Source: a virus
Taxonomy: Duplodnaviria > Heunggongvirae > Uroviricota > Caudoviricetes
Length of the DNA stretch: 7,103 bases
Direction: 5' to 3' (one strand)
Virus record (IMG/VR): IMGVR_UViG_2600254997_000006
Span: 1-7,103 of that record
Shown: positions 5,841 to 7,103 of the stretch, piece by piece
Layout: every line of letters begins with the position of its first letter
Position numbering within the stretch: position 1 is the stretch's first letter
Made by a program: the position numbers and the translations under genes
Notes under the pieces: generated by a model
What the model saw: the letters and a program-made list of their open reading frames with translations, nothing else
The model's database searches: none
Told to the model about the DNA's origin: nothing

Positions 5841-7103
5841 ATGGCAGTAAAGATTTCAGGTGTACTGAAAGACGGCACAGGAAAACGGCACAGGAAAACC
5901 GGTACAGAACTGCACAATCCAGCTGAAAGCAAAACGTAACAGTACCACGGTGGTGGTGAACACGGTGGCCTCAGAAAATCCGGATGAAGCCGGGCGTTAC
6001 AGCATGGATGTTGAGTATGGCCAGTACAGCGTCACCCTGCTGGTTGAAGGTTTTCCTCCTTCGCATGCCGGGACCATCACAGTGTATGAAGATTCTCAAC
6101 CGGGGACGCTGAATGATTTTCTCGGTGCCATGTCGGAGGATGACGTCCGGCCGGAGGCAATGCGTCGTTTTGAACTGATGGTGGAAGAAGCGGCGCGTCA
6201 CGCAGAGGAGGCGAAGAAGAATGCCGGAGAGGCGGAGACATCAGCGAGGAATGCTGGCATATCAGCCAGTCAGGCAGAAGAGAGCGCTGCAAATGCTGAC
6301 ACTTCAGCAGGGGATGCATCGGAGTCAGCCCGGCAGGCGGCAGAAAGTGCAGCCGCTGCAAAGCAGTCAGAGGAGGCGTCCTCGTCCTCGGCTTCTGCGG
6401 CCGCTCAAAAAGCCAGTGAGTCATCACAAAGTGCAGCAGATGCTGAATTGTCAAGAAAGACGGCAGAAAGTGCAGCCGGTAATGCAGCCAGGGATGCAAC
6501 GACCGCAACAGAAAAAGCCCGGGAGTCAGCAGAAAGCGCACAGTCAGCGGAACAAAGCAGGATAGCGGCGGAAGAGGCCGTAAACCGAATCCCCACCGTG
6601 GTGGGACCTCCCGGGCCAAAGGGGGAACAGGGGCCCGCGGGTCCTCAGGGGCCGAAGGGTGATAAGGGAGAGCGCGGTGACACCGGCCCAGTCGGGGCAA
6701 CCGGCGAACGGGGACCGGCAGGTGATGCTGGTCCGGCAGGCCCGCAGGGGCCGAAAGGTGACAGGGGAGAGCGGGGAGAGACCGGTCTGACGGGAAATGC
6801 AGGTCCACAGGGTCCAAAGGGAGATACCGGTGCGGCAGGTCCGGCAGGCCCACAGGGACCGAAAGGAGAAACAGGTGCGGCTGGCCCGGTGGGGGCAACC
6901 GGACCTCAGGGACCAAAGGGCGACCCGGGGGAGACACAAATCCGTTTTCGTCTGGGGCCGGCGAGCATTATTGAGACAAACAGCAATGGCTGGTTCCCGG
7001 GTACAGATGGTGCGCTCATCACCGGACTGACCTTTCTTGACCCCAAAGATGCCACACAGGTTCAGGGGCTGTTTCAGCATTTGCAGGTCAGGTTTGGTGA
7101 CGG
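5841..7103 (+). CDS. stf: Side tail fibre protein Stf, 5' portion (extends beyond the window), with an Ala/Ser/Glu-rich shaft and a collagen-like Gly-X-Y domain; reading frame broken by a 13-bp tandem duplication near the start
   Basis: ATG 5841 (GAGG 5-9 nt upstream) gives MAVKISGVLKDGTGK, matching the lambda Stf N-terminus as I recall it, but the frame then stops at TAA 5937-5939 (32 aa). From 5887 the adjacent frame is open to the window end and reads GTGKPVQNCTIQLKAKRNSTTVVVNTVASENPDEAGRYSMDVEYGQYSVTLLVEGFPPSHAGTITVYEDSQPGTLNDF..., continuing the Stf homology. The first in-frame ATG downstream is at 6004. Further on are Ala/Ser/Glu-rich low-complexity sequence and 37 consecutive Gly-X-Y triplets. 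Confidence 0.85.
5874..5899 (+). repeat. Perfect 13-bp tandem duplication (GGCACAGGAAAAC x2) inside the 5' end of stf
   Basis: Copy 1 at 5874-5886 and copy 2 at 5887-5899 are identical; period-13 identity spans 5872-5899. Removing one copy restores a continuous frame reading MAVKISGVLKDGTGKPVQNCTIQLKAKRNSTTVVV.... Confidence 0.9.
6604..6936 (+). repeat. Collagen-like repeat: 37 uninterrupted Gly-X-Y triplets within Stf, with internal imperfect DNA repeats
   Basis: In the stf frame: GPPGPKGEQGPAGPQGPKGDKGERGDTGPVGATGERGPAGDAGPAGPQGPKGDRGERGETGLTGNAGPQGPKGDTGAAGPAGPQGPKGETGAAGPVGATGPQGPKGDPGET. There is strict 9-nt periodicity, and GPAGPQGPKGD-encoding segments recur (for example ~6731-6760 and ~6838-6867). 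Confidence 0.9.

Follow-up and report, generated by a model that had tools for sequence, protein, structure and literature searches.

A 37-triplet collagen-like tract in a frame-disrupted stf gene of EPEC E851/71, very probably the Col domain of an EPclA-type side tail fibre

Does a long collagen-like reading frame in a prophage belong to a known kind of tail fibre gene, and does its integrity mean that the protein is made? The window analysed here (7,103 nt) is the whole contig ALNX01000073.1 of the draft assembly of EPEC E851/71, and frame 1 of its plus strand encodes 37 unbroken Gly-X-Y triplets, i.e. 111 amino acids, at positions 6604–6936 (GPPGPKGEQGPAGPQGPKGDKGERGDTGPVGATGERGPAGDAGPAGPQGPKGDRGERGETGLTGNAGPQGPKGDTGAAGPAGPQGPKGETGAAGPVGATGPQGPKGDPGET). 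Translation and residue shuffling confirm the perfect 333-nt tract described in the original prediction: the second-longest Gly-X-Y run in all six frames of the window has 4 triplets, and 20,000 shuffles reached at most 8 triplets with the whole 411-aa product and 11 with the tract alone, against the 37 observed. Glycine recurs at every third residue over the whole run, and the score with the Pfam Collagen profile PF01391 is 65.8 bits, above the curated cut-off of 27.2. The triplet census (GPK 6, GPQ 5, GPA 4, GER 3, GET 3) agrees with the predicted richness in GPQ, GPK, GER and GET, and Pro occupies 48.6% of the X positions. DNA-level internal repeats are present but modest. The tandem-repeat finder (TRF) that had been proposed as a check reported a single 45-bp unit (2.0 copies, 82% match) and two 9-bp mini-arrays, a repeat search gave families of 41–56 nt at 60–85% identity, and a strict DNA tandem repeat was rejected as the nature of the tract since the longest exact direct repeat within it is only 14 nt.

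The gene that carries the tract is stf of a lambdoid prophage tail module. ORFs for K, I, J and lom stand upstream of it, and the order K-I-J-lom-stf is also found in phage 434, phage cdtI, E2348/69, and VT1-Sakai. The homologues of its product have 437 aa. The PF08400 match in the frame-1 product covers profile positions 10–133 of 134, and frame 3 supplies the first 15 residues, 5' of a short duplication that is treated below. PDB entry 9e7m ("Tail fiber protein", chain Ta) matches residues 1–94 of the phage 434 homologue (E = 9.4e-53); in Ur-lambda these residues form the collar by which Stf is attached to the tail at the gpV/gpM junction (PMC12617516), and the first ~94 residues of PfN correspond to that collar. 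The PCoil segment consists of 32% Ala, 20% Ser, and 13% Glu, with Leu, Ile, and Val totalling only 7, and both its length and its composition agree with the EPclA PCoil (PMC3368898). Behind the tract, the PF06820 match spans profile positions 1–54 of 64, and the last ~21 residues of PfC, a domain that trimerises and renucleates the triple helix (PMC3368898), lie beyond the contig end. A Pfam search of the stf product gave no match to PF03406, and neither a signal peptide nor an anchor was found in it. The domain order PfN-coiled coil-Col-PfC and the gene context both agree with the predicted collagen domain of a side tail fibre.

Features of the stf region in the window (positions in nt)
Feature	Position	Strand	Remarks
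Intrinsic terminator-like hairpin and T-run, CCGCCGGTTCAGGCGGGCTTTTTT	5806–5829	+	After lom, just 5' of stf; the phage 434 equivalent is annotated as terminator
stf Shine-Dalgarno region, GTGAGGTGAA	5830–5839	+	RBS annotated at the matching place in phage 434
stf start and truncated 32-codon frame-3 ORF, MAVKISGVLKDGTGKRHRKTGTELHNPAESKT and stop	5841–5939	+	Product of the duplication
Frame-1 open stretch, remainder of stf (411 codons)	5869–7103	+	Runs off the contig end ~65 nt short of the expected stop
13-bp tandem duplication, 2 x ACGGCACAGGAAA	5872–5897	+	Breaks the stf frame
PfN domain, Prophage tail fibre N-terminal, PF08400	5881–6252	+	Pfam E = 5.2e-62
Ala/Ser-rich PCoil segment (putative coiled coil), 116 aa	6256–6603	+	Between PfN and Col
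Col, 37 Gly-X-Y triplets, putative collagen triple-helical shaft	6604–6936	+	Residues 251–361 of the intact protein
Imperfect 45-bp tandem repeat, 2 copies, 5 triplets GPA-GPQ-GPK-GxT-GAA	6799–6889	+	TRF
PfC domain, Putative prophage tail fibre C-terminus, PF06820	6940–7103	+	Pfam E = 3.7e-28; truncated where the contig stops
Spurious antisense ORF, 286 aa, 20% Pro, 19% Leu	6077–6937	-	10 amino-acid changes from 11 substitutions vs phage 434
Second spurious antisense ORF, 178 aa, Arg/Leu-rich, 8% Pro	6544–7080	-	11 amino-acid changes from 11 substitutions vs phage 434

PfN, an Ala/Ser-rich PCoil of about 116 aa, a single unbroken Col of 111 aa and PfC, encoded 3' of J and lom within the tail module of a lambdoid prophage, are the features of EPclA, and it is very probable that the tract represents Col in a side tail fibre of the EPclA type from EPEC E851/71. 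When one copy of the duplicated 13 bp is removed, the translation of stf (hereafter the repaired product) aligns without gaps to VT1-Sakai H0004 at 97.6% identity and is 99.5% identical to the protein of E. coli DCE7 and 95.7% to the "side tail fiber" of phage 434. The tract stands at residues 251–361 in all three of these proteins, and Col has the same length and position in E2348/69. VT1-Sakai H0004, which we take to be the same gene as Sp15 ECs2941, served as the EHEC copy of EPclA after the O157:H7 H46 locus had been rejected for this role because it is another stf pseudogene of larger size. In Table 2 of the defining study (PMC3368898), Sp15 ECs2941 appears as an EPclA with 437/116/111. 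EPclA of O157:H7 Sakai (e.g. ECs2717 and ECs2941) has the same PfN, 116-aa PCoil, 111-aa Col, and PfC in 437 aa, and shares with the window stf its triplet and X/Y preferences and its place after J/lom in a lambdoid prophage; the EPclA of Ghosh et al. comes from EHEC and the window copy from EPEC E851/71. The X/Y preferences also agree with EPclP, for which 48.1% Pro at X was published (PMC3368898), and GPK, GPQ, GPA, GER, and GET are the top five triplets.

The architecture PfN-coiled coil-Col-PfC was described and tested by Ghosh et al. (2012; PMC3368898), who found rEPclA of O157:H7 Sakai to be a trimer and a rod of ~30 nm with a collagen triple helix by CD (maximum near 220 nm, cooperative melting, Tm 42 C). 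The triple helix and trimer of the original prediction thus hold for a 437-aa protein of the same architecture, whereas in the window itself the tract is out of frame with the stf start codon. Such a tract is ordinary and already known, belonging to one of the commonest types of E. coli prophage tail fibre, a type published in 2012: the same tract occurs in 698 of the 5,426 complete E. coli genomes and in 296 phage records, and strains of this kind carry near-identical stf copies at a median of 2 places in the genome (at most 16). The window copy has the commonest architecture of such fibres, and it carries little weight as a discovery, the collagen-like side tail fibres of E. coli prophages having been named EPclA-D and characterised biophysically in 2012. 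A search of the literature after 2013 for "side tail fiber", collagen, Stf, and lambda found nothing further. The nearest prophage is one of E2348/69 (98.1% DNA identity). In phage 434 (Stf, OL657226, CPT_434_23) and phage cdtI (orf20) the protein has 437 aa and the same 37-triplet tract, stf is followed by an 89-aa PfC-domain ORF, and both genome records, unlike the window, show stf without frame disruption. The 437-aa form is documented here from such genome records, its canonical clusters being outside the best 120 of a protein search limited to 8,000 candidates.

The tract is identical to that of phage 434 at 322 of 333 nt. Compared with phage 434 and E2348/69, 10 of the 11 substitutions alter the third base of a codon in the sense frame, where the 11 together cause a single amino-acid change; the tract is under purifying selection in frame 1. 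Neither of the two antisense ORFs over the tract is conserved, and both were rejected as real genes because the substitution pattern fits the sense frame only. The antisense ORF 6077–6937 stays open because of the GGN-CCN periodicity and the 70% G+C of the tract, and long antisense ORFs over such tracts are compositional artefacts. The original prediction had dismissed them as spurious and proline-rich; spurious holds for both, proline-rich only for 6077–6937 and not for 6544–7080. The counterpart of 6077–6937 is annotated in phage cdtI as the hypothetical orf22, an artefact of the same compositional kind. In the record of phage cdtI the start of orf20 is annotated downstream.

As sequenced, stf has no intact frame from its start codon across the four domains, the ATG at 5841 being in frame 3 and the collagen tract in frame 1. 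Between them, after codon 15 and 730 nt 5' of the tract, lies the 13-bp tandem duplication, which the original prediction had missed. TRF calls it at 5867–5899 with period 13, and alignments show that one copy of the unit is absent in E. coli DCE7, phage cdtI, phage 434, and E2348/69. The ORF from ATG 5841 reaches a stop at 5937–5939 after 32 codons, and its first 15 residues match the start of all intact homologues, MAVKISGVLKDGTGK. Since the duplication shifts the frame, stf as sequenced is predicted to be a pseudogene, and the collagen tract would not be made within a functional fibre; an uninterrupted collagen tract need not mean an expressed protein. The public gene call for stf (5965–7101), a partial "tail fibre" CDS, is therefore misleading as an annotation. 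The broken frame also bears on the condition under which the original prediction would give up its structural interpretation, a region not translated in this frame, even though the second copy may stem from a draft-assembly error. This stf is a defective (or mis-assembled) EPclA comparable to the genes marked with a star in Table 2 of PMC3368898, with the difference that its frame is broken at codon 15 by a private duplication while the defective copies of Ghosh et al. lose the frame between domains. When 80 nt across the duplication junction were compared by megablast with 5,426 complete E. coli genomes, every match fell into two pieces with a span of 67 nt, and the exact 37-nt junction pattern is absent from GTDB species representatives and from IMG/VR.

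J and lom of the contig are also frame-disrupted, with indels in G/A homopolymer runs at about 4987 in J and about 5654 in lom, and the disruptions in the contig are the result of either prophage decay or draft-assembly error. For stf we lean, with some reserve, towards a real duplication. If it were an error, stf would be intact in the real E851/71, the frameshifts in J and lom would likewise be draft artefacts, and a normal 437-aa EPclA would be translated, which we consider possible though somewhat doubtful. The assembly is a draft in which the window makes up an entire 7.1-kb contig, indels in homopolymer runs such as those of J and lom are typical of sequencing error, several near-identical stf copies per strain invite mis-assembly, and no other genome searched has the duplication. 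However, a clean 13-bp tandem duplication is atypical of homopolymer-type read error, and the flanking GAAAGAC/GAAAAC microhomology offers a plausible natural origin by slippage. EPclA genes with frame loss are moreover common in prophages (PMC3368898, Table 2), and the prophage of E2348/69, the closest relative, likewise has frameshifted genes (J and tape-measure).

Taking the duplication as real, one may ask whether the tract is translated nonetheless. Frame 1 has no stop between 5869 and the contig end and offers GTG 5965, the start chosen by the gene caller, and ATG 6004, from which an N-truncated, free trimeric Col-PfC protein unable to attach to the tail could arise, and Col-PfC fragments fold and trimerise alone (PMC3368898). 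We hold this to be improbable: no recognisable Shine-Dalgarno sequence lies within 20 nt upstream of any candidate, the product would miss part of the residue 1–94 collar needed for attachment (PMC12617516), and among the matches listed no homologue begins there except partial records. Even less probable is a duplication that acts as a reversible or bypassed switch, through slippage loss of one copy (phase variation) or a +1 ribosome shift between 5869 and 5937. Tandem duplications can revert by slippage, and neither frame 3 nor frame 1 meets a stop within 5869–5936, yet the unit is present in only two copies, the overlap contains no known slippery or stimulatory motif, and the duplicated state occurs in no other genome searched, so that populations show no hint of coexisting on and off states. 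It would be a considerable surprise if a slippage switch toggled the EPEC side fibre, or if an internally initiated, tail-free collagen-like trimer had a function of its own; in either case the tract would be expressed conditionally and not constitutively. There is finally hardly any chance that the tract is part of a collagen-like adhesin on the surface of bacteria, of the Streptococcus Scl or Bacillus BclA kind, or that the proline-rich antisense ORF is a real gene. One homologue (P0092) bears the name [quoted passage not shown], BclA is among the PDB matches to the collagen region, and the antisense ORF has its annotation as a hypothetical protein in phage cdtI. Against these stand the place of stf after J and lom in the tail module, its phage tail-fibre N- and C-terminal domains without signal peptide or anchor, the restriction of the PDB collagen matches to the Gly-X-Y region, and the substitutions, which support the sense frame only. 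P0092 is 85% identical to the E. coli prophage protein studied here and is most likely a contamination or mislabelling, and an Scl/BclA-like identity was rejected as the similarity is confined to the repeat.

The reading we prefer, an EPclA-type fibre gene that has lost its frame, implies the following picture of the intact 437-aa protein, in which trimer formation, triple helix, and dimensions are taken from the literature, and the present analysis supplies the sequence with its domains and homologies, the broken frame, the length variants, and the pattern of selection. Three chains would associate, with their N-terminal PfN domains clamping the fibre to the tail. The 116-aa Ala/Ser coiled coil followed by the 111-aa collagen triple helix (~30 nm) would form a hinged rod, and the C-terminal PfC would trimerise, nucleate the helix, and presumably contact the cell surface as the receptor-binding tip.

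Lambda Stf is likewise a trimeric, hinged and dispensable side fibre, and in laboratory lambda a frameshift has inactivated stf as well. Its shaft consists of a long coiled coil, and its gp37-like distal domain binds OmpC and needs Tfa. The two genes share their position after lom. The N-terminal 153 residues are homologous (75% identity to orf-401 by BLASTP, with the similarity stopping at residue 153), and the lambda Stf collar domain (residues 1–94, PDB 9e7m) is present in the window-type fibre. The distal part consists of Col and a small PfC domain in the window fibre as against a gp37-like domain in lambda Stf, and the window stf lacks both a lambda-type coiled-coil shaft and a gp37-like distal domain with Pf2 repeats. 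No Gly-X-Y run longer than 3 exists in any frame of lambda orf-401/orf-314, in agreement with the original prediction for lambda Stf. The window stf has only the N-terminal module in common with lambda Stf.

Among collagen-like proteins at large, the Gly-X-Y triple helix predicted for the window fibre is shared with Streptococcus Scl1/Scl2, Bacillus BclA, and the animal collagens. In these collagen-like proteins, as would hold for the window fibre, the helix has no hydroxyproline, is stabilised by charged pairs, and is nucleated by a flanking trimerisation domain. Scl1/Scl2, BclA, and the animal collagens show no homology to the fibre outside the repeat, their sequence matches being limited to the Gly-X-Y region; Scl and BclA are cell-wall or exosporium proteins whereas the fibre is part of a phage virion, and the residue preferences differ.

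Closer relatives vary in the length of the tract. The EPclB, EPclC, and EPclD variants (e.g. 933W Z1483, Stx2-86 gp21, and Shigella peptidase-S74-type fibres) share the PfN-PCoil-Col beginning, and in the Shigella/EPclD-like P0061–P0092 the first ~17 triplets are nearly identical to those of the window. Among the best 120 cluster representatives the tract has 4–38 triplets, always whole ones, in line with the predicted hotspot for in-frame length variation. Most shorter tracts equal the 37-triplet form minus one internal in-frame deletion, and among the matches listed the shorter forms fit this single-deletion model at 92–100% residue identity. The deletion junctions lie in repeated GPQ-GPK-type motifs and are usually ambiguous over 1–3 identical triplets, and the 32-triplet variants P0027 and P0035 miss exactly one 5-triplet unit of the 45-bp repeat. 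From these junctions we infer that prophages come to differ in tract length as triplets are lost or gained in frame at repeated GPQ-GPK-G(D/E)-type motifs. Recurrent in-frame deletions would explain most of the length variation, which would make the reach of the fibre readily evolvable in Stx and other lambdoid phages.

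Translation of the window recovers the described series of 37 Gly-X-Y triplets at 6604-6936 without interruption, as 111 residues in frame 1 of the + strand, and no Gly-X-Y run longer than four triplets occurs in other frames or places of the window. In 20,000 residue shuffles no run exceeded 8 triplets when the entire 411-aa product was shuffled, or 11 when only the tract was, against 37 observed, and chance is therefore excluded. The tract is rich in GPQ, GPK, GER and GET as described, the commonest triplets being GPK (6), GPQ (5), GPA (4), GER (3) and GET (3); Pro holds 48.6% and Asp/Glu 35% of the X positions, Y positions are occupied by Lys/Arg, Ala, Thr and Gln, and G+C is 70% versus 56% in the window. 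These X/Y preferences and top five triplets match the published EPclP figures (X: 48.1% Pro, 35.6% Asp/Glu; Ghosh et al., 2012, PMC3368898).

The genes of the window make up a lambdoid tail module, with stf as the last of them. The frame-1 product matches, in order, the prophage tail fibre N-terminal domain (PfN; PF08400, E = 5.2e-62), collagen (Col; PF01391, 65.8 bits, above the cut-off of 27.2) and the prophage tail fibre C-terminus (PfC; PF06820, E = 3.7e-28, truncated where the contig stops), and the 116 residues between PfN and Col are 32% Ala and 20% Ser with hardly any Leu/Ile/Val. This is exactly the architecture of EPclA, the EHEC prophage collagen-like protein A, a 437-aa protein with a coiled-coil segment of 116 aa and a Col of 111 aa, listed for the majority of the lambdoid prophages in O157:H7 strains EDL933 and Sakai (PMC3368898). 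When one copy of a 13-bp duplication is taken out of the window's stf, the product gives a gap-free alignment of 416 residues with each of four relatives, with the tract at residues 251-361 in all of them; identity is 99.5% to E. coli DCE7, 97.6% to VT1-Sakai H0004, 97.1% to E2348/69 and 95.7% to the phage 434 "side tail fiber". We take H0004 to be gene ECs2941 of prophage Sp15, an EPclA in Table 2 of Ghosh and colleagues. The stf gene of this type is very common: 698 of 5,426 complete E. coli genomes have a place covering at least 80% of 5781-7103, and 296 phage records contain the Col-PfC segment; most are of Stx-converting phages, and VT1-Sakai, BP-4795, Min27 and phage 434 are also among them.

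Coordinates of genes and other features in the window and in the loci of relatives (L003, phage 434; L002, phage cdtI; L005, lambda; L001 and L004, other relatives)
Feature	Location	Strand	Remark
K	41-784		
I	682-1329		
J	1390-5013		
lom	about 5178-5780		
lom terminator hairpin	5806-5829		upstream of stf start
stf			after lom
antisense ORF	6077-6937	-	20% Pro
antisense ORF	6544-7080	-	Arg/Leu-rich
cdtI orf22	L002 8811-9569	-	hypothetical protein
lambda orf206b	L005 1248-1868	-	hypothetical, inside stf
89-aa PfC ORF	L003 9377-9646		
89-aa PfC ORF	L001 7376-7645		
89-aa PfC ORF	L004 10153-10422		
effector region	L001 7763-10920		
effector region	L004 10537-13087		
effector region	L003 9824-11811		
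effector region	L002 9812-11744		

The tract has 11 differences in 333 nt from phage 434 and from E2348/69; ten of them lie at third codon positions, and together they change a single amino acid (GEQ to GEP), whereas read in the two antisense frames that are open they would alter 10-11 amino acids. All three differences from VT1-Sakai are synonymous. The pattern is evidence that frame 1 is the frame under selection, and both antisense ORFs are therefore by-products of GGN/CCN periodicity and high G+C. The original prediction that they are spurious thus stands; its description of them as proline-rich applies to the first of the two only. The counterpart of that ORF in the phage cdtI record, orf22, is the same compositional artefact. 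Lambda orf206b is another antisense ORF annotated within stf in a public record.

The window protein shares 75% identity with lambda Stf over residues 1-153, the homologous N-terminal part, where the similarity stops, and PDB 9e7m is matched over residues 1-94 (E = 9.4e-53). Lambda Stf has no collagen-like tract, as originally stated, since no Gly-X-Y run longer than three is present in any frame of orf-401/orf-314; the two fibres have only the attachment module in common, and the rest is replaced by Col-PfC in the window fibre. In Ur-lambda, twelve copies of Stf residues 1-94 build a collar at the gpV/gpM junction, and the four side fibres, each a trimer, extend from it (PMC12617516). What else is known of the structure comes from the literature on near-identical proteins. 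Recombinant EPclA forms trimers, which come apart when denatured, and PfC serves as a trimerisation module; the Col-PfC fragment gives a collagen CD spectrum with cooperative melting at 42 C and quick refolding, and rotary-shadowing EM reveals a dumbbell with a hinged stalk whose collagen part is about 30 nm (PMC3368898), compared with 32 nm expected (111 x 2.9 A). Because of this structure and the lambda Stf-like attachment part, it is most likely that the collagen helix acts as a rigid spacer, which would hold the small C-terminal PfC knob off the tail and thereby let it meet the cell surface earlier than the central fibre J; we infer a receptor-binding role for PfC. The domain, its biophysics, distribution, length variants and even defective copies are already published (PMC3368898), and the window adds nothing outside this knowledge.

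The internal DNA repeats of the tract are real, yet degenerate: TRF reports two copies of a 45-bp unit (82% match, 6799-6889) and two 9-bp mini-arrays, a repeat search finds families of 41-56 nt at 60-85% identity, and exact direct repeats reach 14 nt at most. In the best 120 cluster representatives from the protein search, the longest Gly-X-Y run ranges between 4 and 38 triplets, with 23 different lengths, of which 19, 9 and 37 are commonest among the matches listed. Thirty-nine distinct shorter tracts of PfC-type proteins match the 37-triplet form minus one internal block at 92-100% of residues, the junction in most being ambiguous over 1-3 identical triplets (typically GPQ-GPK, GPV-GAT or GER), and the 32-triplet form lacks exactly one 45-bp unit. 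Lengths of 19, 26 and 15 triplets are each reached via two different junctions, so length changes are recurrent. The view of the tract as a length-change hotspot is borne out by these single-block variants, and it was already known from the tabulated EPclA Col lengths of 63, 78, 81, 111, 114 and 144 aa, which differ by multiples of three (PMC3368898). As exact homologies are short (at most 14 nt), the sequences argue for occasional illegitimate or short-homology recombination as the probable source of these changes, rather than rapid microsatellite-like slippage. The upstream coiled-coil is also variable, with the tract starting at residue 188, 210, 224 or 251 (P0001-P0109, cluster representatives), and therefore both rod segments of the fibre are length-polymorphic. 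Some of the differences in the coiled coil, 41 and 27 residues, cannot be divided by seven and depart from the rule stated in PMC3368898.

In the window, stf starts at ATG 5841 (upstream GTGAGGTGAA) in frame 3 and the tract is in frame 1, because 13 bp are perfectly duplicated in tandem (2 x ACGGCACAGGAAA, 5872-5897) after codon 15; in alignments DCE7, phage cdtI, phage 434 and E2348/69 each lack one copy. The ORF from ATG 5841 ends after 32 codons at TAA 5937-5939, frame 1 is closed upstream by TGA 5866-5868, and no frame-1 start with a recognisable ribosome-binding site precedes GTG 5950-5965 or ATG 6004. The GAAAGAC/GAAAAC microhomology on the flanks of the duplication could have been its template. 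The duplicated junction had no match in the 5,426 complete E. coli genomes, GTDB species representatives or IMG/VR. We lean toward regarding the duplication as real, in which case the tract here is a well-preserved relic and not an expressed domain; it is highly improbable that the duplication works as a switch that can revert, or that it leaves a free collagen-like trimer made from an internal start.

The window spans contig ALNX01000073.1 (draft assembly GCA_000754045.1) from end to end; the accession prefix is that given for E. coli E851/71 (PMC3897749). Among complete genomes, the nearest relative is a prophage of EPEC E2348/69 (98.1% identity, full window). Three adjacent genes, J, lom and stf, are disrupted in the window. 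Judged against intact J of phage 434, cdtI and DCE7, J leaves its frame next to a G5 run at about 4987; homology continues to about 5104, and the last ~37 residues, in the C-terminal receptor-binding region, are replaced by out-of-frame sequence. In lom the frame changes near 5654 at a G run; the first 168 residues are in one frame and the final 39, which match Lom of phage 434 and of E2348/69 at 100% identity, in another. Either the prophage is decaying, which would fit with its E2348/69 cousin having frameshifted J and tape-measure genes and with the defective EPclA copies listed by Ghosh et al. (PMC3368898), or homopolymer errors of the draft lie behind the three disruptions, the J and lom changes both being in or beside G runs. 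In E2348/69, J has its frameshifts elsewhere (3333, 4024), at positions where the window is open. The contig ends about 65 nt short of the expected stf stop, inside PfC, probably because the stf 3' end and the next PfC-domain ORF are repeated among several of the strain's prophages.

The ORF directly 3' of stf in relatives encodes 89 aa and is itself a PfC domain (PF06820, E = 5.1e-36), under the annotation "tail fiber assembly chaperone" in some and "phage tail fiber C-terminal domain-containing protein" in others; such a second, free copy of the fibre's C-terminal trimerisation domain is curious. The region just 3' of stf in all relatives holds type III secretion effector cargo (NleB2, NleC, EspW, DUF1076/NleG-like and Cif), and thus the collagen-like fibre gene marks the boundary of an effector-exchange locus in these lambdoid prophages. 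One cluster representative, P0092, is 85% identical to the E. coli prophage fibre of the window and is entered under the name [quoted passage not shown], a name that almost certainly reflects contamination or mislabelling of the source record.
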